A DNA stretch of 64,000 nt from an uncultured delta proteobacterium. GTDB taxonomy: Bacteria; Desulfobacterota; Binatia; Binatales; Binataceae. The position numbers and the translations under genes were made by a program. Shown one piece after another: positions 12,016 through 40,234 of the stretch (position 1 is the first letter of the stretch; every line of letters starts with the position of its first letter). The stretch covers positions 507,204 to 571,203 of the forward strand of contig CAVXGH010000004.1 in NCBI GenBank assembly GCA_963761255.1. Direction: 5' to 3'. The notes beneath the pieces were generated by a model that searched no databases, was not told where the DNA came from, and was given only the letters and a program-made list of their open reading frames with translations.

Positions 12016-12031
12016 CAACGCTAGTAAAGAG

Positions 12032-18541: not shown

Positions 18542-20815
18542 CTATTCTTTCAGAACGGCGGCCTGTTCAATTCCTTCCCGGTCGAAGATCAGAAGCAACT
18601 GACCCGATTCGTCAGGCCCTGGATCCTTGAGCCCGCGCGGGTAGGGAAAGAGTACATGATTGGCGTAGGGTCCAAATTTCTTGATTACCGGTTCGAGATC
18701 GTCGAAGCGTCCGAAGATGCCAATTCCGACGTCTGCTTTTCCCATTGGTCCGAGCCAAAGGTTGTGCCACCAATTGTTGTCCGCATCCTCGAAGCGGATC
18801 GGTTCCGGAAGATCCAGCGCTTTCAGCCGTTGGGCGTTCCAGGGAGTTAGCTTTGCAAGTGGAGAGCCGCTACTTAAGTAGCGGTTGGTGGCGCCTATCA
18901 ACATTGCGACCGAAGCCAGCGCCTCGCGTCGGGCTATTTCATGCGGCGTCGCGGTAGCGTAGGAATTCAAGATCGCGGGAGAGACCCGATAGAGTAAAAC
19001 TCCGTCAACCGCCACCGGAGCTAGCTGCAGCTTCGCCAGCAGTGCGGGCCAGTGATGCTGCTTGCCTTCCTCGACTACGATCGTATTTACGTGATTTGCT
19101 CCCAGAAAGGCCTCTAGCTCTTCTACAAAACCTCCGATAGCCTCGTCGCTATCGAAGGACTGCAAGATCGGCCAGCCCGCCGACGTAGGCGGTGTCATAC
19201 CAACACGCCCGGTGGCGATGTTGTAGTAAAACCCGCTCTCAGCCTGCCATAGCAGGCTCATGCTTTCCCCACCATGCGGCAGGAAGAGTACGTTGTCGCC
19301 CGGCGCGATATATTGTCTGTATCTCTCGGACCTGACGAGCAAGGGTTGGTCGGCTTCCGAGTCAGTGATGAACACGCGCGAAGAACTCGGCGCCAGGAAT
19401 GCGAGGCAAACTATTGCCAGCCCGACCGCAAACCATAGCGGATATTTAGTCTCGCTGAGGACGATGGCCGCCATTAGCGCAGCCGCCAGATACATGTACA
19501 TGCCGAAACGGCCGGGTAGCGCCTGATTGGTCAATGGCAGCTTGCTGAACACCCACCATGGCATCGGGATCGTCGGAGTGCCTCGAACATGAAGGATCGG
19601 CCCCAACGAAAGTATCGCTATCAGTGCCAGACTCACCGTCAAGAGCTTTCCAACCGGTTCACGCCACTTCGCGATGACGAAGAGAGCCACCATCACCAGG
19701 AGTCCCGGGCCGAGATACCCAGACATTTCCCACCATCCGCCCATCATTGCGGTGGCGGAATCGAAGATATGACCGCCTATCATTAAGGCTGGAGTGGGAA
19801 TGAAAAGAGCAAGCAAATCGTTGGAGTACTCGGAACCGGGATTGATCGGACCAGGCACCCCTTGAGCAAAGACATAATAGAGGTATGGCGACAATACTAC
19901 GATCAGGCTCGCATAAGTGATCGCGAGATCCGGCAGGAGTCTCTGTAATGCGCGGCGAGTCTCCCCTCCGCATATCAGGTATGCCAGCACGATCAGAAAG
20001 GTGCCGAACACACTCGTGGTGGCGAACAGTTCGGTGGAACTTAGGAACTCGAAGGCTAAGACGATAGTCAGTAGGACTACCAGGGTTGCGCGGCGAAGCT
20101 CTCCATTCATACGCCGCAGCACCAGCAGTATCGCCAGCGGCACCGGAAATATGAATAAGAGAAATATATGCGCCATTGATTGCGCCATCGCATACGGCGA
20201 GAACGCGAAGATGAGTCCACCCAGCAGCGCGGGCCAGAAGCTCTTCGCCACGTACCTGCACAACAGGAACATCGAGAACCCATTGGCCAGCGGGCAAAGG
20301 ATGTTCAGGATGTTGTATGAGACCACCGGCCCCCAGAGCATCGTTATAGGAGTCATCAGGAGACTCGGTCCCGGAATGCTGGTTGCCCACGCTAGGTTCG
20401 CGCCTTTGGGCGCCCAGATCGCGGTGGTAAGAAACGGATTGATGCCATGCAGGATCGCATGCGGCCACCATGCGATGGCCCACAGAAAGATCGTCGGATC
20501 GGCGCCGACCCCGACATAGCTGGTAGTGAAATGCCCGCGGAGTGGGAGGCCATAGATGAGGAGCGAGATTGTGATGTAGATGAGTAAGGCGCCGCAAATT
20601 TCAAGGTTAGCGGCTCCCGCGATAGCTCGCCGCCCCAGATACGGTAACCTCGGTTCAACCGCGGCATTCTCCGAAGTCGGGTTTATGTCGAATTTCACAA
20701 GGCCACGCGCAAGCGGTTTCGGCGAGCAATCCACATCGCGAGGCATCCTCCGCAGAGTTATGTCCCAAGTCAAGTGTTTCGTCTTATGTTCGCCTTTCGG
20801 CGAAATCGAGCACAC
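18542..20815 (-). CDS. large polytopic membrane protein with C-terminal soluble domain (GT-C-like)
   Basis: 757 aa. The N-terminal roughly 480 aa are multi-pass (GADPTIFLWAIAWWPHAILHGINPF...) and the C-terminal roughly 270 aa are soluble. The start is uncertain. Confidence 0.6.
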   Translation of the reverse strand: MCSISPKGEHKTKHLTWDITLRRMPRDVDCSPKPLARGLVKFDINPTSENAAVEPRLPYLGRRAIAGAANLEICGALLIYITISLLIYGLPLRGHFTTSYVGVGADPTIFLWAIAWWPHAILHGINPFLTTAIWAPKGANLAWATSIPGPSLLMTPITMLWGPVVSYNILNILCPLANGFSMFLLCRYVAKSFWPALLGGLIFAFSPYAMAQSMAHIFLLFIFPVPLAILLVLRRMNGELRRATLVVLLTIVLAFEFLSSTELFATTSVFGTFLIVLAYLICGGETRRALQRLLPDLAITYASLIVVLSPYLYYVFAQGVPGPINPGSEYSNDLLALFIPTPALMIGGHIFDSATAMMGGWWEMSGYLGPGLLVMVALFVIAKWREPVGKLLTVSLALIAILSLGPILHVRGTPTIPMPWWVFSKLPLTNQALPGRFGMYMYLAAALMAAIVLSETKYPLWFAVGLAIVCLAFLAPSSSRVFITDSEADQPLLVRSERYRQYIAPGDNVLFLPHGGESMSLLWQAESGFYYNIATGRVGMTPPTSAGWPILQSFDSDEAIGGFVEELEAFLGANHVNTIVVEEGKQHHWPALLAKLQLAPVAVDGVLLYRVSPAILNSYATATPHEIARREALASVAMLIGATNRYLSSGSPLAKLTPWNAQRLKALDLPEPIRFEDADNNWWHNLWLGPMGKADVGIGIFGRFDDLEPVIKKFGPYANHVLFPYPRGLKDPGPDESGQLLLIFDREGIEQAAVLKE

Positions 20816-24870: not shown

Positions 24871-27054
24871 CTATTGAGAATGCAAGCCCGGCATCGCCCG
24901 AATGACGCGAATACTGCTAACGGCGATTCCCAAAGGCCGCGGATCAGCGGTGTGTTCGAACTCAGCGGGCGATATCGGGACCATTCCGCTGAACTCCAGA
25001 AAGTTCGCAGGCTCTTTCAGCGCGCCGGTGATCGTGACCTCGGTGTCCGCTCCTGAGACGGACACCTGCCGCTTGAGGTTGCCCACCTTCAGCGTAAGCG
25101 GCCTTCCGGAGTTGGGTCCATAAGCATGCGCTTTGACAGTGAGTTGAACCTCGCCTGAGATGGGAGCGTCGAAATAGACGCGCGCTACCGCATCGCGCGT
25201 CCACACCGAGCCTTCCTCCGGAAGATTGAAGCCCGAAAGCGAGACCTGTCGAGTACCCTTGCGAGAGAGATCATAGAGGCGCGGATAGGATTCCAGATTC
25301 CTCCCAGAAGCCGTCGATAGAGGAGTCGGCGAAAGCGTGACAAGTTCGAAACCCTGCCCCACGATTCGCGAATAATAAGGCACTTCGATCCAATATGGAT
25401 CGAGTAGTAGAATCCACTTCACTCCGGGAGGAATGTCGCGATTGGATAAAGCGGGCTGATCGAGAATGCGTCTCTCAGAAAGCGAATATAATTGGAGCAT
25501 CACTCGATAGCTGCGAGGGTCGTGCTCGACCTTGGAGAATACCATGCCGTCATCGATATGGTCCCTCACCAGATTGCGTACCGCAATTCCGGCAAGGTCC
25601 TCCCGAGGCGGACCTGCCACCTGTGCGAGCTGGTCGCGAAAGATCGCAGCCGAACTCAGCAGTGCCAAAACAACCAGCGCACCGCAATAAACGATACGTG
25701 CCAGAGTCGCGTTACCAAAGGCCAGGACAATCGCTGTCACAATGCAGCCGCCAACCGCAAAACCAAGATTCAGGTTGTTGGCAGCGAGCCATCTGACCTC
25801 CGGATAATCAACGAAATTTATGCAATATGGTGAGCGCGCATAGTAGACTAAGGCACCCGTTGTGACAGCGCCTGTGATCGCCAGAAGTTTGAATAAGACC
25901 GCATGTCGGGGTTGAAAGCGATTTGGACGCGTCTTCACCAGGAACAAAAGAACAAGAGCCGGAAACACAAAGTCGTAGTAGCGACCATGGAGACGACAAA
26001 CCTCGACCTCGAATAGAGAGGCGAAGTCGACGCCAACCACCGCCGCAGCGGCAAGAAAGAGAGCCAGCGCCGAAAGTGAAAAGCCCAATAACAATACATA
26101 GCTGAGACTTGCCCGTCGCGTTTCACTCACGGACTCACTCGGCCAGAACGCCAGCAACAACGCAGGCCAGAACAGTACCGATAGATCGGCTAAATGTCCT
26201 TCCAGAAAGTGCCATAAGAAGTACCCCAGGCCCAATACCAGCGCAGGATGATTTGGGCTCTTAGCCGTCCAATGAAGAACTACCGCGGCCGGCGGACGCT
26301 TGGACACCACCTGGTAAAGCGTGCCGAAGGGCATCACGGTGAAATCGCCGTGCGCGAGGTATTGGATGGCAAATCGACCGACCACAAATGCCTCGAAGCA
26401 TCCAACTGACGCTTCGATTAATTGGCCCACACTTATTCCGTCTGGGTCGCAAAAATAGAGTATGCTGAATACCACCGGAAATGTTCCGAATATAATCAGT
26501 CCGTGTGGCTTGATTGCCGATAGCGCCGCAGTAGCGAAGCCCAGATAGACCCCGCCGTAGATGATGTTGGTCGGTAATTTGACTACCACCAGATACGCCA
26601 CAACCCAGAAGGCAAAAAAGAACATCGCTTCGGGCATGACATAAACAGAGTAGGAACTGATCGGAGAAAGGACCACGGCGACAGAAAAGAGATAGGCGCC
26701 GATTTTGGACAGGAATTGGCGCGCGATCGCATACAAAGGCAGTAACGACATCGCAAAGAACGTAGCATTCAAAAGTTTTGTAATCGCGAGGTGATTCGCT
26801 CCAAACCATGATGCCGAATGATAAATGAAAAAGAAGAGAACATTCGGCATCTGAATCGTAAAGCGTGGATTGTTGAGAAACTTGGCATGCAGCGCATAGA
26901 GCTCTTCATCTGCTAAAATCACGGGATATTGAATGTAAAGCGCACGCAAGAAGAGGATGCCGGCTACTCCGAGCACGGTCAGAGCCAGCAGGAGGCCGAG
27001 GCCGCCTCTTCGGTTTCGAGGCGATTCCGCGGGGGTGCGCGAGTTCATCCTCAA
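24871..27054 (-). CDS. large polytopic membrane protein with C-terminal beta-rich domain (GT-C-like)
   Basis: 727 aa. First-loop acidic motif ILADEELYALHAKF, about 13 helices, and a C-terminal roughly 180-aa soluble domain. Confidence 0.6.
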   Translation of the reverse strand: MRMNSRTPAESPRNRRGGLGLLLALTVLGVAGILFLRALYIQYPVILADEELYALHAKFLNNPRFTIQMPNVLFFFIYHSASWFGANHLAITKLLNATFFAMSLLPLYAIARQFLSKIGAYLFSVAVVLSPISSYSVYVMPEAMFFFAFWVVAYLVVVKLPTNIIYGGVYLGFATAALSAIKPHGLIIFGTFPVVFSILYFCDPDGISVGQLIEASVGCFEAFVVGRFAIQYLAHGDFTVMPFGTLYQVVSKRPPAAVVLHWTAKSPNHPALVLGLGYFLWHFLEGHLADLSVLFWPALLLAFWPSESVSETRRASLSYVLLLGFSLSALALFLAAAAVVGVDFASLFEVEVCRLHGRYYDFVFPALVLLFLVKTRPNRFQPRHAVLFKLLAITGAVTTGALVYYARSPYCINFVDYPEVRWLAANNLNLGFAVGGCIVTAIVLAFGNATLARIVYCGALVVLALLSSAAIFRDQLAQVAGPPREDLAGIAVRNLVRDHIDDGMVFSKVEHDPRSYRVMLQLYSLSERRILDQPALSNRDIPPGVKWILLLDPYWIEVPYYSRIVGQGFELVTLSPTPLSTASGRNLESYPRLYDLSRKGTRQVSLSGFNLPEEGSVWTRDAVARVYFDAPISGEVQLTVKAHAYGPNSGRPLTLKVGNLKRQVSVSGADTEVTITGALKEPANFLEFSGMVPISPAEFEHTADPRPLGIAVSSIRVIRAMPGLHSQ

Positions 27055-27124: not shown

Positions 27125-27736
27125 TCATTGTTTGCGCAGCTTCTTGGCGAACAGCACGATCAACGTGGTAAGGGCGGCGCAGAGCGCCAAGGCGAGGCCA
27201 GCTGCCCGAAAGACAACGTCGGCTTCGAGACCCGTGAGGCGATCGAGTTTGTCCGACAGAATCATGTAGGGATCGTCGGTAGATAGTTGGGCGACGAGAG
27301 TCTGGCCTTCGAGTGAGAGCACGACGTCATTGAGAGGATAGATGGTATGCCATAATTCGTGCGCCAGGTCGATTTTGACCAAACGGTATCTGCCTATGAC
27401 CACGTTACGCAGCGCTATCAGGCCGGGTTGCTGAAGCGGATCTAACCTGATCTGACGAATCGGTCTGAGCGTCGGCAGTTTTAGCTGATAGGTTTGGAAT
27501 TGCCCTAAAGGCCGTGGCCGGTAGTCGAAGCAGATCTGTTGTGCCGCGGAAAATCCCTGCCCGGTATCCCAATAGAGACACGGGTCCATGCTGTGGTGTT
27601 TTCCCGGGGGAGCTTCATACACCGCCATGTCGAATGAGACCTGAGTCGGCGTGTGCAGGCGCTGGACCACCAGTATAATCCCGCAAAGTGCCACCCAGGC
27701 GAAGATGAAGCGTCGTACACCAGTTTCCAGACTCAT
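27125..27736 (-). CDS. stand-alone TM-domain-TM module protein (paralog of the N-termini of the next two genes)
   Basis: 203 aa: TM helix, then VSFDMAVYEAPPG...CLYWDTGQGFSAAQQICFDY...IRLDPLQQPGLIALRNV...LSLEGQTLVAQLSTDDPYMIL, then a C-terminal TM helix. Confidence 0.65.
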   Translation of the reverse strand: MSLETGVRRFIFAWVALCGIILVVQRLHTPTQVSFDMAVYEAPPGKHHSMDPCLYWDTGQGFSAAQQICFDYRPRPLGQFQTYQLKLPTLRPIRQIRLDPLQQPGLIALRNVVIGRYRLVKIDLAHELWHTIYPLNDVVLSLEGQTLVAQLSTDDPYMILSDKLDRLTGLEADVVFRAAGLALALCAALTTLIVLFAKKLRKQ

Positions 27737-27770
27737 TAGCGCCGCACACCTTCACGAAGAAGTGACTGAC

Positions 27771-30386
27771 TCACCGCGTAACAGGCCTCTCCGCCTTCGC
27801 CGTCTCAGCTTCCATGTGTCGTGGGAACGCCTGTTCCAGGTAGTGGACCTGGTAGAAGTACCATTGGATGAGCTGCTGCTTTCGCTGTCGTATCTCTTCC
27901 GGCGGTTGCGTGGCAACGATGTTGTTTCGCTCGTCAGGATCGGTAGTCAGATCAAATAAATAGCTAAGGTCTTTGCTCGGCAGGTATACGAACTTCTCAG
28001 GTCCAGGTCCTTCAACCATGCCTAATTTGAAGTCACCATAAACATTGCTCATGTATACGGGGTCATCCGGCTGTTTCGAGAACGCCACTTCAGACTGTCC
28101 AAGCTGTTCATCATCGCCGAGCAAATAGAGCAGCGTCGCCGGCACGTCCTTCATCGAAATGCGTCCATAGAAGTCCTGCCGTTGCGGAAACAGGGAGGAG
28201 CTGTAGAGCAGCATCGGAATACGCACCGACTGGTTGTACAAGTAATTGCCATGGAGCTGATCGCCGGTGTGCTCGTTGAACGCCTCGCCATGGTCGCCGA
28301 AGATCATGACCAGTGGATGGCGGCCGGTTTTCTCGAGGCCCGCGATCAAGTCGCCGACGGCGGCGTCGGATGAGTAGATACAATTGTCGTACTGATCGAT
28401 GACATTGTGCTCGGGAAACTTTTTGGTCGTCGCCCAGTAGGGGTGATGCGCTCCGGCGAACCAGATTACCGCCGCGACGGGCTCCGTCCGCGCGCCATAC
28501 CAATGGAGGAAGTCATCGACCAGGACGGTGTCGCTGCCCATGGTACCTGGTGGTCTAGCTGCTGATCCATAGCTGGAAAGCAGGTCCGCCGCACCTACCG
28601 TTTTAACCAGGGCGGGTCCCATTGCGGCTTTCATAAGAGGCGCGAAATGATCCGATTCGGGGTTCGCATTGACACCCAGGTAGCCCTTGTAGCCGCGTCC
28701 AGCCAGAATACCCCAAAAGGTCGGCCGTCCCAGAACCCTATCCGGATTGTAGTTCACTGCTTCGATACGAGGATCGGGGTAAGTACCGAGAGTGAAGGCC
28801 TCCATCGTTTTAGCGCTCCTGGGTTGTGCGACATAAACATTGGAGAACACCATCGCATGCTGGGAGAGGCGAGTGAGGTTCGGCGTTGTCTCGCGAGGAT
28901 AGCCATAGAGTGACACATCAGCTCTGCGCACGGACTCCAGCACGACAAAGATAACGTCCTGGCCAGCAGCGGCGCCATGATAGTGTAGGTACGCGGATGG
29001 AACCGGGCGCGCCGGCGGATAATGGAAGCTCGCGAAGTCGGCCGGGGCTATCTTCGGATCCAGCTCACCGCTCAAATCCGGACTGGTTTGCAGCGCCAGG
29101 ACGATGGGCGAGGAAACCGAAGGATCATAGGCATAGGGTGCGCGCAGAGGGCTCAAAGCGCCCAGTGACCACACCGCGGATATAGAGGCGAATGCTATCA
29201 CCATGCGCTTCGGAATTTGGCGGCGCCGCAACGACCGAAAGGCGAAGACGCAAAACATCAGCACCGCCACGCCGGCCAGCCCCGCAACCATCGCCGGTGC
29301 GCGGGTGAGGTAGTAGTGCAAGCTATCGGGGGTGGGAGATTCGTACGCGAGCAGAATCAGGCTCCCATCCACATAGGCGCCCCATTCCCAGAAGACGTAG
29401 GCGCAGAGGATTTCGAAGAGCGCCAGAATTATCAGAGCCACTGACATCGTGAGCTCAATAACTGCTAGCAGCACGCGCAACGGGCGCGTCCATTGACTTC
29501 GGGCGCATAGGTTGTCGATTCCCATGACGATCAGGATAGCTACCAAAGCTAGCAGTCCGATCGCGACAGTCTCAGCGGGAGCTGCTCCCAGGTCTGACAA
29601 CGAGACATGCCGGCCGTAGCGAATCGCGCTGGTCAGAATCGCGAAGACCTTGGCACCAAACATGGTGACGAGAAATGCCGTGAACGCTGCTGCCGTGGCC
29701 ACGCGTGCCCATGTCACGAACGCCAGGGCATAGGGTTGCAGGATATCAACATAGAGCTCGATGACCGACAAAAGGCCCGCCCATCGCAAGACCTCGAACA
29801 GCGCCACCACGGCGGTCGAAAGTACCAGGGAGAGGATGGCGGCTTGAAGCAAAGCGCCGATTCCGGACGCCACGCGGCGACGTGCGGTGTTTACCATCAA
29901 CATGAAATAGGGATCGCCGCCCGTGACCCTAGCGACCAGCGTATCGCCTTCCAGAGCGAGCACCGAGGCGTGGAGAGGGAGGACGGTATGGCCAAAGTCC
30001 CGCGCCAGACTGATTGCGCCAAATCGGAATAGGTCGAGGGTGTAGCGGCCTCGATCCACAGCTACATCGCGAAGCGCTACAACTCCGGGTTCCTCGAGGG
30101 GATCGAATCGCAGCTGATAGATAGACCTCCAGGTCGGCAGCGTGATCTGGTAATTCTGAAACGCGTTTAATGGTTTGCGATCGTAATCAAAGCAGGTCTT
30201 CTCCGCCTCTGAGAATCCGCTCCCGGTGTTATAGTAGAAACATGGAGTGAGATAGGGTCCGGGAGCTGCTTCCCGTACGGCGATCTGGAAGGAGACCGTG
30301 GTGGGGGCGCCGAAGCGCTGGACGAATAGAATCAGACCGCACGCGATCATCGATAGGTAGATAAGCCGGCGCCAGAGTGTAGTCAT
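27771..30386 (-). CDS. LtaS/OpgB-type alkaline-phosphatase-superfamily transferase with N-terminal novel module
   Basis: One module copy (nt 29787-30386), then about 5 TM helices, then the catalytic domain VIFVVLESVRRADVSLYGYPRETTPNL...QPRSAKTMEAF...GDHGEAF. A Thr lies at the nucleophile position (KT) and there is no C/S-x-P/A-x-R sulfatase motif. The start was moved to the internal ATG (MTTLWRRL). Confidence 0.8.
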   Translation of the reverse strand: MTTLWRRLIYLSMIACGLILFVQRFGAPTTVSFQIAVREAAPGPYLTPCFYYNTGSGFSEAEKTCFDYDRKPLNAFQNYQITLPTWRSIYQLRFDPLEEPGVVALRDVAVDRGRYTLDLFRFGAISLARDFGHTVLPLHASVLALEGDTLVARVTGGDPYFMLMVNTARRRVASGIGALLQAAILSLVLSTAVVALFEVLRWAGLLSVIELYVDILQPYALAFVTWARVATAAAFTAFLVTMFGAKVFAILTSAIRYGRHVSLSDLGAAPAETVAIGLLALVAILIVMGIDNLCARSQWTRPLRVLLAVIELTMSVALIILALFEILCAYVFWEWGAYVDGSLILLAYESPTPDSLHYYLTRAPAMVAGLAGVAVLMFCVFAFRSLRRRQIPKRMVIAFASISAVWSLGALSPLRAPYAYDPSVSSPIVLALQTSPDLSGELDPKIAPADFASFHYPPARPVPSAYLHYHGAAAGQDVIFVVLESVRRADVSLYGYPRETTPNLTRLSQHAMVFSNVYVAQPRSAKTMEAFTLGTYPDPRIEAVNYNPDRVLGRPTFWGILAGRGYKGYLGVNANPESDHFAPLMKAAMGPALVKTVGAADLLSSYGSAARPPGTMGSDTVLVDDFLHWYGARTEPVAAVIWFAGAHHPYWATTKKFPEHNVIDQYDNCIYSSDAAVGDLIAGLEKTGRHPLVMIFGDHGEAFNEHTGDQLHGNYLYNQSVRIPMLLYSSSLFPQRQDFYGRISMKDVPATLLYLLGDDEQLGQSEVAFSKQPDDPVYMSNVYGDFKLGMVEGPGPEKFVYLPSKDLSYLFDLTTDPDERNNIVATQPPEEIRQRKQQLIQWYFYQVHYLEQAFPRHMEAETAKAERPVTR

Positions 30387-30435
30387 CGATCTGGACTCAC
30401 TCACGAAGAGCCCTGCGTTTCGATCATGGCCGGGA

Positions 30436-33400
30436 TCATTGTGGAGCCTTTGCCGCACTAACGGCGAGGCGGCGAGGAAATTCCTGATCGAGGTAGTGGG
30501 TCTGGTAGAAATACCATTGAATCAGTTCTTGTTCTCGCTGCCGGATTTCCTCCGGTGAACGCGAGGGAACCAGGTTCGTTTCCTCGCCAGGATCGGTGGC
30601 GAGATCGAACAGATAGTCAAGTTTCGTGCTCGGAAAATACATGAACTTCTCCGGCGCGAGACCGTCTACCATTCCGAGCTTGAAGCCTCCATAGACATTG
30701 CTCATGTAGACGAGATCGCCCGGTTGTTTGGAGAACGCCACTTCTGATTGCCCGATCGGTTCTTGCTGACCCAGAAGATAGAAGATGGTTGCCGGGACAT
30801 CCTTCATGGAAATGCGCCCATCGAAATCCTGTCGCTCAGGAAAGACCGCCGAGTCATAGAGCATCATTGGGATGCGGACTGACTGGTTGTATAGATACCT
30901 GCCATGAAAGCGATCGCCCGCGTGTTCGCCGAATGACTCGCCGTGGTCTCCAAAGATTAGGACTAACGGATGTCGCCCGGTCTTTTCCAGCTCATCGACC
31001 AAATGACCTATGGCCGCGTCGGCCGAGTAGATGCAGTTGTCGTACTGATCGACCAGGCCATGCTCCGAGAACTTTTTCGTTGTAGCCCAGTACGGATGGT
31101 GCGCTTCGGCGAACCAGACCACCGCGGCTGCCGGTCCCTTGCGTGCCCGGTACCACTGGAGGAAGTCGTCAACCATAACTGTATCGTTACCCATGCTTCC
31201 GACTGGTTTGGCTATCTCTCCATAATGAGCCGTCAAGTACGACTGTCCAACGGTGCGGTCCAAGGCAGGTCCCGCAGCGGCACGCATAAAGGCACCGAAC
31301 CCGTCGTTCTCGACGTCGGCGTTAACACCCAGGTAGACCTTGTAGCCGTGTTGGGAGAGTATGCTCCAGAACGATGGGTGCCCGAGAATTCGATCGGCGT
31401 CCCAGGCCAAAGAGTCAAACCGAGGATCGGGGTAGGTGCCGAGCGTGAAAGACTCCATGGTCTTGCAGCTTCTCGGCTGCGAGACATAGACGTTGGAGAA
31501 CACCATCGCATGATGAGATAGGCGCTCCATATTCGGTGTGGTTTCCCGTGCATAACCATAGAGGGAGACATCAGCTCTGCGCACTGATTCCAGCACTACG
31601 AAGATCACGTCCTGTCCCGCGGCGGCGCCAAGATAATGTTGATACGCAGCGGGGACAGGGCGGGGCGGGGGCAGATGGAAGTCCGCCAGCTTTGGCGCGT
31701 CAACACTGGAGTCCAAAGCCTCGCCCAAATCATAGGAGCTCCGCTGCGCGACTACCATCGGCGAGGAAACCGCTGGGTCATAACCGTCGGGTGCGCGCAA
31801 AGGCTTAAGCGCCTCCAGCGACCAGATCGCGGCTATGGACGCGAGCGCGACCACCAAGCCTCGAGGAATTCCGCGCCGACGAAAAAACCTGAAAGAAAAG
31901 ACGCCAAACCACGCCACGGCGACTACGGCAAGCGCCACGATCGCCGCCGGAGGACGAGTAAGGTAGTAGCGCAGGCTGTCTGGAGTAGGTGAGTGGTAGG
32001 CAATCTCGATAAGGCTTCGGTCGAGATAGGAGCCCCACTCCCAGAACACATAGCAACAAAGGATTTCGAAGAGCGCCAAGAGCACCAGGACGCTCGCGAC
32101 CAGAGACTCGCACGCAAACAACAGAACCCGAAGCGGAGTTGTCCACCAACTTCTCGCGCAAAGGTCGTCCGCCCCAACGAGGAGCAAGACGACGGTCATG
32201 GCGAGCAGTCCGAGGGCAGCGCTCTCGGCCGGGGCAACTGCAAGATCGGCGAGTGAAATCGCGCGCCCGTAATGGAAGGCGCTGGTCAGTAGGGCAAAAG
32301 CCTTGCCGCCGATCATCGCAACCCAAAATGCCGCCAACGCTGCGAGGGTAACCGCGCGCGTCGCGGCGAATAACTGGGGGGTGCGCCGGCGCGCAAGACC
32401 GAGCCAGGTCTCATTGCGCTGCCACCTGCCGGTCTTACGCGCCCACTCCACCAGCGCGAACAAACCCGCCCATAGCAGCAACGAGGTCGCGATTCTCTGG
32501 AGCACTACCCGAGCACCGGGACCGGTCCTTCGATCGAACCCATCTACCAACATAAAATGCGGATCGGTGGTAGAGAGGCGGGCAACCAAGGTATCGCCTT
32601 CAATGCTGAGCTGAGTCTGGTGCAGCGGGTAAAGAGTATGTCCGAATTCTTTCGCAAGATTGATCTCGGCGAACCGATAGCGGCCAATCCTGAGATTACG
32701 CAGCGCGATGACTCCCGGTTCTGCGAGCGGATCGAAGCGGAGTTGATGGACCGTCCGGTGAGTCGGAAGCGTTATTTGGTACCTTTGAAATCCCGCCTGC
32801 AAACCCTGGTGGTAATCGAAGCAGACAGTTTCGGTCTCGGAGAAACCGTGTCCGGTGTCGTAAAAGAAACACGGGTAGAAGCCGCGTCCCCAGATATCCG
32901 CCTCTCGGATGGCAATCTCAAATGACACCGTCGTCGGGGTTCTGAGTTGCTCAACCAGCAGCACCATGCTGTAGACCGCGAGCAACACCAAAAGCCACGG
33001 GATAGACCCACGCATCCAGAGGACGGTCCCCCGTATTGAGGCGGCCAGCGACGGATCGTGGCGTACCCAAACCACGCCATCGCGCAGGTGCGCCCACAAT
33101 TTGGTTCTGGGAACCAGGGTCCACAAAACTGCCGCGATGAAACATATGAGAAGCGCGATGATCTCAGCGCGGAGGATAGCGCCGATATCGAGAGCAGTCT
33201 GTCGATCAAGCTGATCTGACAACATGAAGTACGCATCAGCGGTCGACAGCCGAGCGACAAGGCTTTCTCCTTCAAGACTGAGCGGCGAGTCGTGGAGTGG
33301 ATAGAGGGAGTGTCCGAACTCTCGCTTAAGATCGACCACTGTTCGTCGGTAGCTTGCGGGAGTAAACCGGGCGCGTGACCTGCCCATCGCGAGACTACGA

Positions 33401-33816
33401 AGAGCTATGGTCCCCGGCTCTCGCAAAGGGGCAAATCGCAAACGCAAAACCGGCCAGCGCGTTGGCAGGATGACCAGGTAGTCCTGGAACTGATTCGGCG
33501 AGGGGGGACCGTATCTGAAGCAGGTCTTTTCGGCTTCCGAGAATCCATGCCCGGTGTCGAAGTAAAAGCATCCGCGCAAATTGCCGCCGGGGGTCGCGTC
33601 ACGCACTGCGAGTTGGAACGAGACTGTGGTCACCGCCAGGAAGCGCTGGAGGAACAGGATCAGAACGCAGAGGACTACCGAGGCAGGGAGCAAACCAAGC
33701 GCGAAACACGGAAGCCGGAACTCAGGCCGTGCAATTCCCCAACGTGGCGCGGCGAGGGGTTCCCCCACCTGATTGCTGAAGCGCCGAAAAAAACTGCGCA
33801 ATCGGAATTCCCCCAT
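30436..33816 (-). CDS. LtaS/OpgB-type transferase with two N-terminal copies of the novel module
   Basis: Module copies at nt 33115-33711 and 32443-33006, then TM helices, then a catalytic domain nearly identical in motifs to the downstream paralog (VIFVVLESVRRADVSLYGYARETTPNM...QPRSCKTMESF...GDHGESF). Confidence 0.8.
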   Translation of the reverse strand: MGEFRLRSFFRRFSNQVGEPLAAPRWGIARPEFRLPCFALGLLPASVVLCVLILFLQRFLAVTTVSFQLAVRDATPGGNLRGCFYFDTGHGFSEAEKTCFRYGPPSPNQFQDYLVILPTRWPVLRLRFAPLREPGTIALRSLAMGRSRARFTPASYRRTVVDLKREFGHSLYPLHDSPLSLEGESLVARLSTADAYFMLSDQLDRQTALDIGAILRAEIIALLICFIAAVLWTLVPRTKLWAHLRDGVVWVRHDPSLAASIRGTVLWMRGSIPWLLVLLAVYSMVLLVEQLRTPTTVSFEIAIREADIWGRGFYPCFFYDTGHGFSETETVCFDYHQGLQAGFQRYQITLPTHRTVHQLRFDPLAEPGVIALRNLRIGRYRFAEINLAKEFGHTLYPLHQTQLSIEGDTLVARLSTTDPHFMLVDGFDRRTGPGARVVLQRIATSLLLWAGLFALVEWARKTGRWQRNETWLGLARRRTPQLFAATRAVTLAALAAFWVAMIGGKAFALLTSAFHYGRAISLADLAVAPAESAALGLLAMTVVLLLVGADDLCARSWWTTPLRVLLFACESLVASVLVLLALFEILCCYVFWEWGSYLDRSLIEIAYHSPTPDSLRYYLTRPPAAIVALAVVAVAWFGVFSFRFFRRRGIPRGLVVALASIAAIWSLEALKPLRAPDGYDPAVSSPMVVAQRSSYDLGEALDSSVDAPKLADFHLPPPRPVPAAYQHYLGAAAGQDVIFVVLESVRRADVSLYGYARETTPNMERLSHHAMVFSNVYVSQPRSCKTMESFTLGTYPDPRFDSLAWDADRILGHPSFWSILSQHGYKVYLGVNADVENDGFGAFMRAAAGPALDRTVGQSYLTAHYGEIAKPVGSMGNDTVMVDDFLQWYRARKGPAAAVVWFAEAHHPYWATTKKFSEHGLVDQYDNCIYSADAAIGHLVDELEKTGRHPLVLIFGDHGESFGEHAGDRFHGRYLYNQSVRIPMMLYDSAVFPERQDFDGRISMKDVPATIFYLLGQQEPIGQSEVAFSKQPGDLVYMSNVYGGFKLGMVDGLAPEKFMYFPSTKLDYLFDLATDPGEETNLVPSRSPEEIRQREQELIQWYFYQTHYLDQEFPRRLAVSAAKAPQ

Positions 33817-34445
33817 TGAACAGAGATGCCCAGAACCGAACCTGTCGCACGAATCCCGACGATCCGGAAAGACCTGGCAGGACCAACCCAGCCCATGCCG
33901 AGGCTTTGATCGCGTGCCTTCCGTCGGATGTCAGACAGTTTGACGAGATGCGCGAGACTGCCCCGAGCAGTAGGTGCCGTCGGGCCTTCATCTGTTGAAT
34001 CTAGCCGCTAAACCTAGCATAACAGGTTTACGAAGCGCCAACGTGGGCGACTCTCCCCGCTGGCCCTCGCATCAGGTTTCCGCCCGGGATACTCCACCAG
34101 GCAACCGCCCGTTCCCCTGCAGCAGGGTGCTGCATCTAAAATCGTACCACTCGCACGTTTTTATACCGGCGCCTTGAGGCGATAGTGGCAAAGCCTGACT
34201 ATCAGACTGCGCGGATAGTAGTCGGGCCAATCAGCGGTCAACGTCGTGGTCTAGCAGTAGCGTTGCCAACGGCAGTATTCCGAATTCTGGGCGTATCGGC
34301 GCAACCGCGGGAGGAACCTTTGGCGCCGGTGTCGTCTGGCACCGAGAAACCACCCCGATCCAACGGAACACGGTTTCTAGTCAGCGGCTAACAGCGACTG
34401 GTGCGAATTCGTGGTAAATGGTGCGGAGGAGAATTTGGAGGAGAC

Positions 34446-37400
34446 ATGCTCGACAGCTCGCGGCGCGTGATCGTCGTCCTCGGGATGCATCGCAGCGGCA
34501 CCAGTGTTTTCGCGCGCGGCCTGCCGGTGCTGGGGGTCGAACTCGGCGATCGGCTGATGGCGCCGGATCCCTACAATCCGCGCGGATTCTGGGAGGACCT
34601 GGATGTCGTAGGCATAAACCAGCGAGTGTTGGCTACGTTGGGAAGGGATTGGCGGAGTCCAACTCTTATCGACCCCGCGGATTGGGGTTCCGCGGTCCTG
34701 GATCCGATGGTGTCCGAAGCCGAGCAGTTGCTGAACTCGCGATTGGAACGGTACCGCACGTGGGGCTTCAAGGACCCACGTCTATGTTTACTGTTACCCT
34801 TCTGGCAACCGATTTTTCGGCGCCTGGGACTGCGCGAGAGCTATCTGATAGCATTGCGCAACCCCCGCGCAGTCGCCGATTCGCTGGAAACGCGCGATCA
34901 GATCTTCCCGGACCTGTCCCATCTCCTGTGGCTCCTGCATCTGGATGCCGCTCTATTGAATACCGTGGGGAAGCCACGGGTGGTGGTCGACTACGACGAA
35001 ATGCTCCTTAGACCGCGGGCGCAACTCGATCGGATCGCGAAAGAGCTTGAGTTTGCGCCGCCGGTTGCCGACGATCCGGTCTTGCACAGTTATGAGGCAA
35101 GATTCCTCGATCCGAAATTGCGGCATCACCGACATTCGGACGACGTCTCTCCCTCTGACTCGCATCTGACCAAGTTGGCGCTCGCAGTATTTCGATCCCT
35201 TCAGGCGGTCGCGCTCGAGCGACCAGGACTGGGCGATAGAGATCTGCGAGCGGTCGCCGAGGAGGTTAAATCCGAACTCGAGGCCTTCGCCAAGGTGCTT
35301 CCGTTAGCGCATCAACTTGACCTGCGCGTACAGGCGCGCCAAACCGAGTTGGCTGCGGCGCATGCGCAAGTCCGCGCGACGCAAGCGCGGGTCCGGACGT
35401 TAGCTCTCGAAGTGACGAAACTTCGCGCCGAGCTCGTGCCGGCGCGCCGCCTCGCGTTTGAAGAAACCCACCATCTGTGGAACTCCAGTTCGTGGCAGTT
35501 GCTGCGACCGATGCGCGATCTGCTCCGCGGATGGCGTGGCGTCAGCAAGGAGGCCGAACCAACCCCAGCCTCCACGTCGGACGCGCTGCGAAGCATGATC
35601 GAGGTTCGTCAATCGCTATCGTGGGAACTGACCTCGCCCGTGCGGGTGGTGCATCGGCTGCTATCACGAACCATGGCGTTCGGTTCATCGCGGTTTGATA
35701 GGCAGCATCGGGTCGCTGCTGATGCGCCGAAATCCGTCGAGTTCAAGTCACCCTACGCGCCGGAGTCGAGCGCCTGCAACGAGTTGCTGGCCCGAGGCGC
35801 TTTGATACGGTGGCGCAACGCGCCGCCCGGGGAATCGAAGCGGCCTCAAATCGTGTTCGCCTCCCATGAAGCGACTAGAACTGGAGCTCCCCTGATTCTG
35901 CTTTCGCTGGTGCGTCATTTCGCGCAATCCGGAAATTATGAGCTGTGGGTTTTTTGCGACCGTCCGGGGCCCTTGTTGGAAGCCTTCGCGGAACATGCCC
36001 ATGTCATCGATGGCTCGCGACACGACCTGTTCGCGAATTCGCCGGCTATCGACGAGCTGCTGGCCGCGTTTGGGAGCCGCCGCCCGATTTTGGCCTTTTG
36101 CAATACTTCTGTGGTTAATCGTTATGCGGTCGAATTCAAGCGCCTGGGTCTGCCGGTAATCACTCTGATTCACGAAATTGCCGGTCGCTACGCAGAAAGC
36201 GATTTTCGCGAGATCTATGCGACCTCCGACCGAGTGGTCTTTCCCGCTGAATTTGCGCGCAATGCAGCTCATCGGCAGGCAGTCCTTCCCACCGGAAAAG
36301 CACTGGTGATCCCGCAGGGTCTGCTCGATGAAAACTTCGCGGCAGGTGACCGCGAGAAAGCACGTCGCGCGGTCCTGAAGGAACTCCATCTTCCGGAAGA
36401 TAGCTTCCTCGTGCTCGGCTGCGGCACCATCGACCTAAGAAAAGGAATCGACCTGTTTGTGGAACTTGCGGAAAAGATCACCGGATCGAGCGAGGGTGAT
36501 GGAATCCACTTCGCCTGGTTGGGTAGTTTCGGGGAATTATCGGAGTGGCTGCAAAGCGAGATCGGAGTGCGCGGATTAGCCTCCCGGGTTCACTTACTCG
36601 GCGAGCGCAGCGCCCCCGCGCCGTTCTTCATGGCGGCAAATGCTTTCGTGCTTCCTTCCAGAGAGGATCCCTTTCCGTGCGTGGTGCACGAAGCGATGGC
36701 ATCGGAAACGCCGGTCATCGTGTTTGCTGGAGTTGGCGGCGCACCGGAAGCCCTGGAAGGCGGATGCGGAATAGCGGTGCCATTCGGTGACATCGGCGCA
36801 ATGGCCGACGCGGTGGTCGGACTTTACCGCGACCCGGAGGCCGCTGCGCGAATGGCGAAACTCGCTAAACAGCGAGTGCTAACGAGGTATCGCTTCGAAG
36901 ATTACTATCGCGCATTAACGCATGTCGCCCATGATGAATTGGGGGTGCCGCTCGCGGGTGATGATCTGAAACCGGGGAGTCGCGCTGCCAGGATCAGATC
37001 GGAATCCGAGGAACATGATTTTCTTTTGATTCGCAACGACGCCGCCTTCGACCGGGATTTTTACCTTCCGCCATCATCGCCACGAATGACTCGCGACGAT
37101 GCAATCCGGCAATTCATGCGCGAATATGCGACCGCCGGCAGCGGCAGGAAGCCTTTCAGTGGATTCAACCCTCAAACCTACGCGGAGCAAGCGATGCAGC
37201 CGCGGGATCTGGAAACGAGAAATCCATTGGCGCATTTCATCGAACAGGGAAAGCCTCTCGGGCCATGGCTGACCCCGCTGATACGCGCGTCGGCTGACCC
37301 TCCCAAGGCAACGAGGCTGCGGACAGCGCTTCACGTGCACGCGTTCTATCCGGAACTGATCGAAGAGTTGCGGCAGTGCCTGGCGGGAAATTTGTCCCAA

Positions 37401-38033
37401 TGCGATCTATTCCTTACCACCAGCCGCGAGGAGGATATCGCGCATCTGGAAACCATCCTGGCGTCATATGATCGCGGCAAAGTCGAACTTTGCGTCGTGC
37501 CCAATCGGGGACGTGACATCGGACCGTTTCTCACCCAGTACGAATGGCGAAAGACCGGCTACGATCTGCTCGGCCATCTCCATTGCAAAAAAACTGCTCA
37601 TCTCAACGCGGAGGTCGGGGAAACCTGGAGAAACTTCCTGTGGTCGAATCTGGTCGGCAATCGGCTTCCGATGATGGATGTAATCGCCAACAATTTCGAA
37701 GCCGATCAGCGCCTCGGCCTGGTGTTCCCCGATGATCCTCATGTAGTCGGATGGTGGAGCAACAAAGAGCGCGCCGAGGCATTGGCCAAGAAAATGGGTT
37801 TGACCCAGGACCTGCCACAAGCGTTTGAGTTTCCGGTCGGAACTATGTTCTGGTGCCGGCCGGCGGCGCTGCGGCCGCTCTTCGAACTCGGCTTGACCTG
37901 GGAAGACTATCCTGCCGAGCCGCTACCAAATGACGGAACAATACTGCACGCGATAGAGCGCCTGTTGCCATTGGTCGCTCTCAACGAAGGGTACCGCGTC
38001 GCGGCAACCTACGTGCCCGGAGTGACGAGGTAA
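34446..38033 (+). CDS. three-domain fusion: sulfotransferase-like / GT4 glycosyltransferase / RgpF-like rhamnan-synthesis domain
   Basis: GGAGGAG RBS before the ATG at 34446. N-terminal VIVVLGMHRSGTSVFA...NPRGFWED...KDPRLCLLLPFW (PAPS-binding-type motifs). A coiled coil follows around 35300-35450. The middle has EDPFPCVVHEAMASETPVIVF (GT-B E-x7-E). The C-terminal has LHVHAFYPELIEEL...VPNRGRDIGPFL...GHLHCKKT (RgpF-type). Confidence 0.85.
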   Translation: MLDSSRRVIVVLGMHRSGTSVFARGLPVLGVELGDRLMAPDPYNPRGFWEDLDVVGINQRVLATLGRDWRSPTLIDPADWGSAVLDPMVSEAEQLLNSRLERYRTWGFKDPRLCLLLPFWQPIFRRLGLRESYLIALRNPRAVADSLETRDQIFPDLSHLLWLLHLDAALLNTVGKPRVVVDYDEMLLRPRAQLDRIAKELEFAPPVADDPVLHSYEARFLDPKLRHHRHSDDVSPSDSHLTKLALAVFRSLQAVALERPGLGDRDLRAVAEEVKSELEAFAKVLPLAHQLDLRVQARQTELAAAHAQVRATQARVRTLALEVTKLRAELVPARRLAFEETHHLWNSSSWQLLRPMRDLLRGWRGVSKEAEPTPASTSDALRSMIEVRQSLSWELTSPVRVVHRLLSRTMAFGSSRFDRQHRVAADAPKSVEFKSPYAPESSACNELLARGALIRWRNAPPGESKRPQIVFASHEATRTGAPLILLSLVRHFAQSGNYELWVFCDRPGPLLEAFAEHAHVIDGSRHDLFANSPAIDELLAAFGSRRPILAFCNTSVVNRYAVEFKRLGLPVITLIHEIAGRYAESDFREIYATSDRVVFPAEFARNAAHRQAVLPTGKALVIPQGLLDENFAAGDREKARRAVLKELHLPEDSFLVLGCGTIDLRKGIDLFVELAEKITGSSEGDGIHFAWLGSFGELSEWLQSEIGVRGLASRVHLLGERSAPAPFFMAANAFVLPSREDPFPCVVHEAMASETPVIVFAGVGGAPEALEGGCGIAVPFGDIGAMADAVVGLYRDPEAAARMAKLAKQRVLTRYRFEDYYRALTHVAHDELGVPLAGDDLKPGSRAARIRSESEEHDFLLIRNDAAFDRDFYLPPSSPRMTRDDAIRQFMREYATAGSGRKPFSGFNPQTYAEQAMQPRDLETRNPLAHFIEQGKPLGPWLTPLIRASADPPKATRLRTALHVHAFYPELIEELRQCLAGNLSQCDLFLTTSREEDIAHLETILASYDRGKVELCVVPNRGRDIGPFLTQYEWRKTGYDLLGHLHCKKTAHLNAEVGETWRNFLWSNLVGNRLPMMDVIANNFEADQRLGLVFPDDPHVVGWWSNKERAEALAKKMGLTQDLPQAFEFPVGTMFWCRPAALRPLFELGLTWEDYPAEPLPNDGTILHAIERLLPLVALNEGYRVAATYVPGVTR

Positions 38034-38089: not shown

Positions 38090-40234
38090 CTACCCCAGGC
38101 GCGGTTTGCGACCATACCTCAGCGCGAGTTGATTAGTAGCGCTCCAGATCGAAAGCAATGGTGCGATTGTGATCGGGGCATAGGCCGGTGACAGATAAAG
38201 GAAATGCATGGCGGGGAACGAGGAAACATGGATTATCGCCAGCAGAACCAGACGGCAGGGAACCAGGACCCAGATTGCTGTCGCAAGCCAAAAGACAGGA
38301 TCAACCATGGCTCGCCGCGCGCCCATCATCAATGCCCCAAGGGGAAAAGCGAAAATGCCGACCCAGAACAGGGGTAGCATGAGGAATCTGTAGGCGTGCA
38401 CCAAAAAGGCGCGAGTACCTACTGCCCATCTGACCCGCCAGTCGGAAAAAGGATCCGGTTCTGAACCTGTGTCTGACACGGCAACCACGTCGAAGATGCC
38501 TGGCAAGCGGCACGCCGCACTATCCCCGTTGATCATCGCGTAAGCCGAAACCGAAGCAGCGGATTTCGCGTAACCCTGCCAGCCGGTGCTTGGGCCTGTA
38601 GTCCCAATCGCGCCAACAATATCGGGCCGGTCGAGCCCTCCCGAGGCCAAGCCCACGATGGTGCCGCCAGCGTCAACCAGCGCTATATAGTCCGGGGTGA
38701 TTTTCTCGCCAGGTGACCACGCCCAACCAGTCACCTGCGCTCCGCCGGCAACGACTACTGAGTGGGAAACGTCATCAACATGACCAAGGCATGAGTCTGA
38801 CGGTGCAAGCTTGGCCACCTGGTTGAGGGGTTGCCCTAACCAGTTTTGCTGCCGGGTGGGAAATTTGGCGAATTCGTCCCGAAGCGAGCTTGTCCCTGCC
38901 ATTGGCGTACGAACGGGGCGATTGAGAAACTGCCAGTCCGCGATAACCTGCTCCGGATTGCCGCTGGATCCCGCCTCGATGACCGGCGGTGGAGAGCCAA
39001 ACAGCAGGATATCGAGTCCCTGCCAGAGCAATTGTGGAATCTGCCTCATCTGTTCGCTGGTCAGATGAGGAACCAGCCCATAGGCCTGGCTGTCGCAGAC
39101 CAACAATTTTTGTTGACACGCCGAGGTTACTTCATCGTGAACCTCACGAAAAAACTGCGCGGCTGTCACGGGGCTCTGATAATGACCCGCCGCCTGCGCC
39201 GCGTATCGGAGCACCCATAAAAACCAGCCGCCCGCTATGTCTCCGCAAGTCCACGGGTACCATCTGCAGCCTGACTGACCGATCGGCGCGCCAACGGGGT
39301 CAAGATATTTCTGTAACGATGCGAATGCGGGACTGACTCGATAGACCTTAAGTCGGACTTGCCTGGGAACCGGAAGATACGGAACTGGATTTCCCACCCT
39401 CACATTCTGCAAGGCCTGGACGGCGCTAACGAAATTGGATTCCTGGAAATCGACCCCCACGAAGCTTCCGTAGGCGATAAAATTCAGGCAGCGGAAGGTC
39501 AACATCGTCAAGCCGAAGAAGCATAACATCGAGAGCGTCACAGTTAGGGGAAGACGGACGTTCCGCGACCGCAACCATGTACTAACGAGGGCGCCCAAAA
39601 TCAAAATCGCCACGGCCGGCAGGATCCAGACTCCCTCCTCACGGGTTAGCCAGAACCATCCGAGGACCAGGCCGGCGATCGATCCGCACCATACCGCGGG
39701 TCTTTGCCGGGACGCACAGAACAGAGCGTATGTCAGGATCGCGATTAGCAGCAGGGTTTGTCCGGGATATATCGTCTCACGGACCATCCCATGCAGAACC
39801 AACCCCGGATTCCAAAGGGTGAGTATAAAAATTGCCCACGCCAGGATGTGCGAACCGGTTAGTCGCTTTACCACCCAGGCTAACGCGCCGACCGCGATGC
39901 ATTTGAAAATGCCCTGGCTGATCGTAATTGGAAGTCCGCTCCAGGACGAAATCGCGAGGAAAAGCGGATAGCCCGGCCCCTTCGCCAGGGTGGTTTGACT
40001 ATACGGTCCAAGCCAATAGCCCGCTGCGAGATACTGCCCGTGGGAAAGAAACAACTGGTCATCCAGGGCGGCATTCGCATAGATGGAAATGGGGGTAAAG
40101 GCGCACAGCCCGACATAAAGTGCCGAGAGCAGGCCGGCCAGCATACAGGAAATCAGATTTTTGCGACTGGAAGCGTCGCGGAAGGTTTGCAAATCTCGCC
40201 TACGTTCGCACGGTATCCGAGGTCTTTCAGTCAA
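38090..40234 (-). CDS. large polytopic membrane protein with internal soluble domain (GT-C-like)
   Basis: 714 aa. First-loop motif AALDDQLFLSHGQYLAAGYWLGPY...KGPGYPLFLAI, about 9 N-terminal helices, a soluble beta-rich domain (VTGWAWSPGEKITPDYIALVD...GLDRPDIVG), and C-terminal helices. Confidence 0.6.
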   Translation of the reverse strand: MTERPRIPCERRRDLQTFRDASSRKNLISCMLAGLLSALYVGLCAFTPISIYANAALDDQLFLSHGQYLAAGYWLGPYSQTTLAKGPGYPLFLAISSWSGLPITISQGIFKCIAVGALAWVVKRLTGSHILAWAIFILTLWNPGLVLHGMVRETIYPGQTLLLIAILTYALFCASRQRPAVWCGSIAGLVLGWFWLTREEGVWILPAVAILILGALVSTWLRSRNVRLPLTVTLSMLCFFGLTMLTFRCLNFIAYGSFVGVDFQESNFVSAVQALQNVRVGNPVPYLPVPRQVRLKVYRVSPAFASLQKYLDPVGAPIGQSGCRWYPWTCGDIAGGWFLWVLRYAAQAAGHYQSPVTAAQFFREVHDEVTSACQQKLLVCDSQAYGLVPHLTSEQMRQIPQLLWQGLDILLFGSPPPVIEAGSSGNPEQVIADWQFLNRPVRTPMAGTSSLRDEFAKFPTRQQNWLGQPLNQVAKLAPSDSCLGHVDDVSHSVVVAGGAQVTGWAWSPGEKITPDYIALVDAGGTIVGLASGGLDRPDIVGAIGTTGPSTGWQGYAKSAASVSAYAMINGDSAACRLPGIFDVVAVSDTGSEPDPFSDWRVRWAVGTRAFLVHAYRFLMLPLFWVGIFAFPLGALMMGARRAMVDPVFWLATAIWVLVPCRLVLLAIIHVSSFPAMHFLYLSPAYAPITIAPLLSIWSATNQLALRYGRKPRLG

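Follow-up and report, generated by a model that had tools for sequence, protein, structure and literature searches.

We report a membrane-anchored protein module, assignable to no known family as far as Pfam, NCBIfam, PDB and BFVD can tell, that occurs four times in three tandem genes of a glycan locus from an uncultured delta proteobacterium (GTDB Binatia; Binatales; Binataceae; assembly GCA_963761255.1, contig CAVXGH010000004.1, positions 507,204-571,203, forward strand). All positions are coordinates of this stretch of 64,000 nucleotides (nt), the window. The three minus-strand open reading frames (ORFs) are called A, B and C, and the module copies A, B1, C1 and C2; L001 to L017 designate loci with relatives of the module, and P0009, P0090 and P0114 designate database proteins. 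Structure prediction gives the module as a β-sandwich of about 130 amino acids (aa) between two transmembrane (TM) helices. It stands alone in ORF A and precedes the catalytic part of two predicted LtaS/EptA-like transferases in B and C. The module is probably a shared helper domain of sugar-polymer-modifying enzymes, and we tentatively read its β-sandwich, at a little under an even chance, as a non-catalytic domain that binds or positions a glycan or lipid-linked glycan acceptor.

Four copies of one module in three tandem genes

C, B and A lie head to tail and co-directional on the minus strand (Table 1). The four module copies align end to end, with 48 invariant columns, most of them in the part outside the TM helices. 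Compared with ORF A the other copies are 46-47% identical, and the six pairwise comparisons among the four give 47-54% across aligned lengths of 173-189 residues. A six-frame scan of the whole window with a hidden Markov model (HMM) returned exactly these four copies, with domain E values of 1e-60 to 1e-107, and no further divergent copy better than E 0.7, including in the window's other large membrane ORFs. Because the scan returns those four alone, the count is exact and not a matter of chance or low complexity. Coordinates, alignment and scan agree with the original prediction of a module of about 190 aa present in four copies in three minus-strand genes. The sequence motifs that it listed were mostly right, the exceptions being ORF A, which reads TQVSFDMAVYEAPPG, with Q, M and Y in place of the claimed T, I/L and R, C2, which has CFFY, and C1, which has FQDYLVILPT.

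Judged by its sequence conservation, ORF A is a real gene, because comparison with its L001 and L002 orthologues gives a ratio of nonsynonymous to synonymous substitution rates (dN/dS) of 0.17-0.20, as under purifying selection, its length is conserved and it ends in a proper stop. The orthologues are 203-213 aa long and 61-80% identical. ORF B starts with an ATG at 30386, the open frame reaching further, to a GTG at 30458; the database protein P0009 is identical to ORF B at 871 aa.

Fold and membrane topology

The AlphaFold2 (AF2) model of ORF A was built on a 64-sequence alignment of diverse family members. Its mean predicted local distance difference test score (pLDDT) is 93.7 and its predicted template-modelling score (pTM) 0.83, and it comprises a helix at residues 3-28, about ten β-strands within residues 31-161 and a helix at residues 172-202. 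The module is thus modelled as TM helix, β-sandwich and TM helix, matching the architecture originally proposed. The AF2 model of full-length B has a pLDDT of 82.6.

Hydropathy, and for B also the AF2 model, gives seven TM helices in B and nine in C. The predicted inward loops contain 7, 6, 7, 2 and 4 Lys and Arg residues in C and 2, 3 and 6 in B, against 1-2 in the short outward loops, and ORF A ends in KKLRK. Since six TM helices separate the β-sandwich of B from its catalytic domain, the two would lie on the same side of the membrane; every LtaS/EptA-type enzyme characterised so far is known to have an extracytoplasmic catalytic domain. A FadL/TodX outer-membrane protein and MlaD, both encoded in the window, mark the host as diderm. 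From the TM parity, the Lys- and Arg-rich inward loops and the diderm host, the TM-flanked β-sandwich is predicted to be periplasmic. The proposed order of an inward N-terminus, an outward domain, five TM helices and an external catalytic domain agrees with the hydropathy, the AF2 helices, the loop charges and the even number (six) of intervening helices. The assignment of the domain to the periplasm stands for the TM-flanked form; the core is not exclusively periplasmic, as TM-less copies occur in enzymes of cytoplasmic type (see below). The TM-flanked unit, or cassette, is predicted to be topologically neutral, its two helices leaving the topology downstream unchanged, so that one, two or three cassettes could be stacked before different enzymes.

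This layout recalls Wzz and other polysaccharide co-polymerases (PCP), which have the same hairpin of TM helix, periplasmic domain and TM helix and the same association with polysaccharide loci. The module could on these grounds be an analogue of such a chain-length ruler or co-polymerase, setting the length or spacing of a polymer or of its decorations. We regard this as very improbable: its periplasmic part is a compact β-sandwich of about 130 aa and not a long helical coiled coil, no Wzz match was found in Pfam, no homology is seen, and the module is fused to decorating enzymes rather than located beside a polymerase.

Searches for a known family

ORF A matched no Pfam and no NCBIfam family at E≤1, and when 64 diverse modules were compared with Pfam at this threshold, no family was matched by more than one member. 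Sequence-profile searches of PDB with the module gave nothing, or one match to FixH (9g6b_C) at E 0.12 that covers a TM helix and 'YYDxGxG' and was taken as chance. Foldseek comparison of the module model with PDB and BFVD gave nothing at E≤1e-3; the best matches were β-sandwiches of the PLAT/LH2 and C2 types and a phage receptor-binding protein, with TM-scores of at most 0.34. Two domains were tried as relatives and rejected at an hhalign probability below 1%, namely DUF7654, which is C-terminal in DUF7657 partner proteins, and DUF7024, which is C-terminal in the adjacent 727-aa ORF. None of the Pfam matches in distant homologues falls on the module; those to DUF7654 lie at the C-termini of the partners. 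No description of the module domain was found in the literature. That the module was originally recognised as no named family is borne out by these searches.

The wider family, its conserved residues and its partners

An exhaustive HMM search covering 1.84 billion representatives yielded 231 protein clusters at E≤1e-3, of which 57 remain at the stricter threshold of E≤1e-10; word-indexed profile searches gave only 8-9 proteins. The close family, in which the module is followed by five TM helices and PF00884 or forms a free protein of 203-213 aa, is small; its roughly 25 clusters come from soil and metagenome assemblies, one of them labelled uncultured delta proteobacterium. Named carriers of the family at large include Halomonadaceae, Beijerinckiaceae, Opitutia, Blautia and Lachnospiraceae. 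Copies A, B1, C1 and C2 form one clade within the close family, modules of the same locus being each other's closest relatives.

Across 86 wider-family modules, conservation lies in the β part instead of being confined to the TM helices. The conserved positions are (F/Y)55-Y-D57-T-G59-x-G61-F-(S/N)-E64, F70, Y72, F80, Y83, L87-P88, R97-F-D99-P100, G105, P134-L135 and D155-P156. The Cys pair that had been called invariant, Cys53/Cys69, proved to be a trait of the close family: both residues are present in 27 of the 86 modules, all of them close-family members, and elsewhere the positions are mostly E/Q and K/R. Two residues in contact would give this pattern, bonded as a disulfide in one clade and paired through polar side chains in the others.

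Of 166 mapped matches, 68 have one N-terminal module ahead of a polytopic protein, 34 have tandem modules at the N-terminus and 36 are stand-alone TM-bearing proteins of 130-290 aa; a further 12 are without TM helices. Some stand-alone matches in the error-prone metagenome contigs L012 and L017 were not used as evidence, as they adjoin fragmented GT87 ORFs and may be frameshift fragments. The Pfam partners of the module in 66 scanned proteins were Sulfatase (7), DUF7657 with DUF7654 (6), an AlgX-type SGNH domain (5) and DUF2142 (4). Further partners are YfhO, DUF6056 and the glycosyltransferase (GT) family GT87, all three GT-C-like, as is DUF2142. The TM-less copies are found in methyltransferase-GT2-GT2, GT4, PRTase-GT4 and pyruvyltransferase proteins of cytoplasmic type. 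Those at L003 (9722-12043), L004 (8339-10402) and L008 (9608-12043), loci of cultured isolates and metagenome-assembled genomes, lie within GT2-GT2 and methyltransferase proteins and adjoin Wzt-type ABC transporter genes, with an ABC-transporter ATPase gene adjacent in L003 and an ATPase gene with a Wzt_C domain adjacent in L004. All three have the appearance of ABC-transporter-dependent O-polysaccharide loci and belong to Beijerinckiaceae, Blautia and Salinicola. The only trait that the partner enzymes appear to have in common is action on membrane-proximal surface polysaccharides.

These partners bear on the possibility that the β-sandwich, being PLAT/C2-like, binds a lipid head group (of the phospholipid donor, a polyprenyl-phosphate sugar or the undecaprenyl-diphosphate (Und-PP) anchor) and presents it to the enzyme on either face of the membrane. 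Most of them use lipid-linked substrates, and the TM-less copies are in enzymes acting on Und-PP-linked polymers beside Wzt ABC transporters. The acidic and Gly-rich loops are invariant across lineages with different glycans, and what structural resemblance there is points to C2 domains and to the PLAT/LH2 domains found in lipoxygenases, lipoprotein lipase and alpha-toxin, both types being β-sandwiches of membrane surfaces. The Foldseek matches to PLAT/C2 are not significant, however: E values are 0.008-0.06, TM-scores at most 0.33 and root-mean-square deviations (rmsd) 6-10 Å, with probabilities of up to 0.94 for some PLAT domains and 0.07-0.21 for C2, and homology is not established by them. 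Moreover, two TM helices already pin the domain to the membrane, which would make a membrane-targeting device superfluous, and the AlgX-like SGNH partners use no lipid donor. We consider lipid binding doubtful, and rank it third among the readings discussed here.

B and C as predicted LtaS/EptA-like transferases

PF00884 matched B with 130.8 bits and C with 135.7 bits (Pfam cut-off 25), and homologues carry the Joint Genome Institute (JGI) label 'glucan phosphoethanolaminetransferase'. Structural neighbours of the B model are VP1736 (3lxq, E 8e-17), LtaP, LtaS (TM-score TMt 0.69-0.70, with 0.70 for 4uor; rmsd 4.8 Å) and PbgA; Foldseek aligned 661-669 columns of the model with full-length PbgA. 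Across 25 sequences the predicted metal ligand E484 of B is invariant, and the predicted ligands D698 and H699 are at least 90% conserved.

The original prediction had the Thr of the KT motif as nucleophile. Our data point instead to the Ser of QPRS, Ser524 in B and Ser783 in C. In phmmer alignments this Ser falls opposite the Cys that becomes formylglycine in an S1_8 sulfatase, and in EptC it meets the RPYT stretch, the region of the catalytic Thr; in the B model Ser524 opens helix 524-533; and all 25 aligned homologues carry a hydroxyl residue here, which is Ser in close-family members and Thr in remote ones that bear the module. The KT Thr position varies to A, G or S in the distant homologues of the same alignment. 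The predicted nucleophile of B and C is thus an unmodified Ser. The assignment to LtaS-like enzymes rather than formylglycine sulfatases was sound: the S-A-K-T-M stretch of B and C lacks the P and R of the formylglycine motif C/S-x-P-x-R, and the top structural match is LtaS with a TMt of 0.70. B and C are therefore described here as predicted LtaS/EptA-like transferases with a Ser nucleophile.

Two other PF00884 genes are present in the window, at 41210-43816 (+) and 53229-54866 (-). With the classical formylglycine motifs CSPTR and CTAGR, and with what by eye seem to be N-terminal signal peptides on their products, they resemble true sulfatases.

B and C had been taken as nearly identical products of a recent tandem duplication. 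Their catalytic domains share 69.8% identity and their TM domains 61%, and orthologues of B in other genomes are 83-86% identical to B. On this comparison the duplication is old and not recent, because the identity between B and C is below that of the B orthologues and the order C-B-A is already present in L002.

Free copies beside module-bearing enzymes

A free module copy stands directly beside a single-module enzyme in the window, in L001, L002 and L014, and independently in L013. At L013 (520-4671), which belongs to a distant lineage, three genes stand in a row: one for a CDP-alcohol phosphatidyltransferase lies upstream of that for P0114, an 874-aa protein with module and sulfatase-like domain, and P0114 is followed by the free 249-aa module P0090. 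The phosphatidyltransferase might make a dedicated lipid donor. Because P0090 is most similar to the module of its own neighbour P0114, the arrangement of module enzyme plus free module arose at least twice. It is not obligatory, since the single-module enzymes of L015 and L016 lack a free copy in their vicinity. A rule of two modules per functional unit was considered and rejected: it is contradicted by L014, which has 1+1+1 modules, and by L015 and L016.

In L016 the C-type gene at 9042-12583 is frameshifted inside module 1, HMM positions 6-115 lying in one frame and 114-196 in the next; the split points to a pseudogene or else to a fault in the assembly. The B-type gene of this locus is not followed by a free A-type gene.

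These arrangements suggest a homotypic assembly cassette, in which the TM-hairpin/β-sandwich units pair with each other (within C, and B with free A) and so dimerise several decorating enzymes or gather them in one membrane complex, the β-sandwich being a protein-protein interface and not a ligand-binding domain. Tandem copies in 34 of 166 matches, free copies beside single-module enzymes, including the independent case of L013, the closeness of the L013 free copy to its neighbour's module and the single clade of A, B1, C1 and C2 all speak for it, the last two being expected if partners co-evolve. The three-module total of L014 breaks a strict two-per-unit rule, however, the enzymes of L015 and L016 have no partner copy nearby, and the TM-less repeats of cytoplasmic enzymes have no need of a membrane pairing device. 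We place pairing second, as an unlikely explanation but the main rival to acceptor binding.

The module as a proposed acceptor-binding domain

The reading that we favour is acceptor binding. B and C would be inner-membrane phospho-substituent transferases of the LtaS/EptA type, with five TM helices followed by a periplasmic domain of alkaline-phosphatase fold and a Ser nucleophile. By analogy with known members, they would transfer to the locus's rhamnan-like surface glycan a phospho-alcohol head group (glycerol-phosphate or phosphoethanolamine type) drawn from a membrane phospholipid. One cassette in B, or two in C, would precede the enzyme core, each crossing the membrane outwards, exposing its β-sandwich on the periplasmic face and returning, and ORF A would be the same cassette alone. 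The β-sandwich would keep a glycan acceptor, nascent or lipid-linked, close to the active site on the surface of the membrane, and extra cassettes, tandem or stand-alone, could add avidity or partners. The role in substrate recognition or as a ruler that was originally suggested for the module is plausible.

Tandem repetition is typical of binding modules, and the common denominator of the module's partners would be the glycan acceptor or the membrane surface. The Wzt_C domain and the C-terminal carbohydrate-binding module (CBM) of AlgX offer a parallel, as they too are small accessory β-sandwiches, often in tandem, on enzymes or transporters of surface polysaccharides; they differ in that the module has no sequence or fold match to them, and insertion between two TM helices is unusual for a CBM. 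The copy-number and neighbour data fit a binding domain whose copy number matters, and homotypic pairing fits them about equally well.

Several points weigh against acceptor binding by these enzymes. No ligand, binding site or likeness to a known carbohydrate-binding module was found in the Pfam, NCBIfam, PDB and Foldseek searches. B and C reach no curated cut-off of the NCBIfam equivalogs LtaS, EptA, CptA, EptB and MCR, the best partial matches being to CptA (64 bits against a cut-off of 404) and LtaS (21 against 970). Finally, D57, G59, G61, E64, R97, D99, P100, G105, D155 and P156 are the same across lineages that must make very different glycans; such constant residues are better suited to a constant ligand, such as a metal ion or lipid carrier, or to a structural core, than to a glycan-specific site. 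A constant-ligand model stays in play on account of these unvarying acidic and Gly loops and the weak likeness to PLAT/C2. From all this we rank acceptor binding ahead of homotypic pairing, then binding of a lipid or carrier, and place a Wzz-like ruler at the bottom.

A broader proposal, speculative and in our view improbable, is that the cassette is a widely distributed organiser of surface-glycan assembly. It would see a constant feature of lipid-linked intermediates, for example their Und-PP-proximal end, or would pair with its own kind, and would on both membrane faces, with TM helices on the periplasmic side and without them on the cytoplasmic side, recruit unrelated decorating enzymes (LtaS-like, GT-C, SGNH acyltransferases, GT2/GT4 and methyltransferases) to one substrate or complex.

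The glycan locus and its neighbours

The features of the three genes and their flanking genes are listed in Table 1. The divergently transcribed RgpF-containing protein (34401-38033) is the likely maker of the glycan decorated by B and C. Its GT4, GT1 and RgpF domains occupy the C-terminal 730 residues, the N-terminal approximately 480 residues being without Pfam match; the syntenic counterpart in L001 has Methyltransf_24 at the N-terminal part instead. The locus also encodes a GT2, a methyltransferase and a sugar-nucleotide dehydratase.

Table 1. Positions of the module copies, domains and flanking genes in the window.
Feature	Position (nt)	Strand	Description and evidence
727-aa polytopic protein, C-terminal DUF7024	24871..27054	-	Directly downstream of ORF A, same orientation; same neighbourhood in L001 and L014
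ORF A, 203 aa	27125..27736	-	Stand-alone module: TM1 residues 3-28, β-sandwich residues ~29-165, TM2 residues 172-202, K/R-rich C-tail
β-sandwich of ORF A (residues 29-165)	27242..27652	-	Holds family-wide motifs (F/Y)YDTGxGF(S/N)E, LP, LRFDP, G105, DP155-156
ORF B, 871 aa	27771..30386	-	One module, five TM helices and predicted LtaS-like catalytic domain
Module copy B1 (B residues 1-200)	29787..30386	-	Alignment and six-frame HMM scan
B five-TM domain (residues 229-414)	29145..29702	-	Hydropathy, AF2 helices
B catalytic domain, PF00884 (residues 476-757)	28116..28961	-	130.8 bits; predicted metal ligands E484, D698, H699
B Ser524 codon (QPRS)	28815..28817	-	Predicted catalytic nucleophile; alignments and model helix start
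ORF C, 1126 aa	30436..33816	-	Two tandem modules, five TM helices and predicted LtaS-like catalytic domain
Module copy C1	33115..33711	-	Alignment and six-frame HMM scan
Module copy C2	32443..33006	-	Alignment and six-frame HMM scan
C five-TM domain (residues 482-667)	31816..32373	-	Hydropathy
C catalytic domain, PF00884 (residues 735-1016)	30769..31614	-	135.7 bits; predicted nucleophile Ser783 at 31468-31470
1210-aa GT4/GT1 and RgpF (rhamnan synthesis) protein	34401..38033	+	Divergently transcribed; syntenic in L001, L014 and L016

Three further large ORFs of the glycan locus have no Pfam match: 38090-40234 (-), 18542-20815 (-) and 17144-18436 (-). At the place of the first, L014 has a 727-aa gene with a weak PMT_2 (GT-C) match. 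An insertion-sequence-type transposase (DDE_3 with helix-turn-helix domains) marks the edge of the polysaccharide locus at 10048-11115 (-). Elsewhere in the window, a DndB-like (DNA-sulfur-modification-associated) protein is encoded at 59211-60329 (+), just upstream of the region of a glmS ribozyme (Rfam RF00234, 80.5 bits) at 61550-61702 (+). The ribozyme occurs here in a diderm host; reports of glmS ribozymes are mostly from Gram-positive lineages. The open frame that follows it, 61833-64000 (+), runs off the end of the window and looks GlmS-like at its C-terminus (by eye).

Comparison with known systems and meaning

B and C resemble LtaS/LtaP and GacH/SccH in having a multi-TM N-terminal part followed by an extracytoplasmic PF00884 domain, and LtaS itself has five TM helices. 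The metal site of the LtaS family (Glu, nucleophile, Asp-His) is kept in B and C, and their locus has an RgpF-type rhamnan gene; the streptococcal GacH/SccH are reportedly LtaS-family glycerol-phosphate transferases that decorate rhamnose polysaccharides. A preprint (bioRxiv 10.1101/337519) describes the GacH paradigm. B and C differ from this family in their one or two extra TM/β-sandwich/TM cassettes, the predicted Ser in place of Thr as nucleophile, the diderm host and a score far below the LtaS equivalog cut-off. With the phosphoethanolamine transferases (EptA/MCR, EptC, CptA, OpgE and BcsG) they share superfamily and membrane layout; CptA is the best NCBIfam partial match and EptC a PDB sequence match. 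BcsG likewise has a Ser nucleophile and a polysaccharide acceptor. Here too B and C remain well below the family cut-offs, the 50 best structural matches include no EptA/MCR structure, and no phosphoethanolamine transferase is known to carry the cassette.

What is new is the undescribed accessory domain, B and C themselves belonging to an ordinary enzyme class. Accessory β-sandwich domains are regularly discovered, and the finding is in that respect incremental. The module is a candidate Pfam/InterPro family that would annotate at least 231 clusters of now blank sequence. The substituents that LtaS/EptA-type and GT-C-type enzymes place on O-antigens, teichoic acids, rhamnans and capsules influence antibiotic resistance as well as recognition by phages and the immune system. 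Little is understood of how these membrane enzymes reach their polymeric acceptor, and a conserved, portable domain shared among many of them, with four copies in one operon, one of them free-standing, offers a concrete way into this question.

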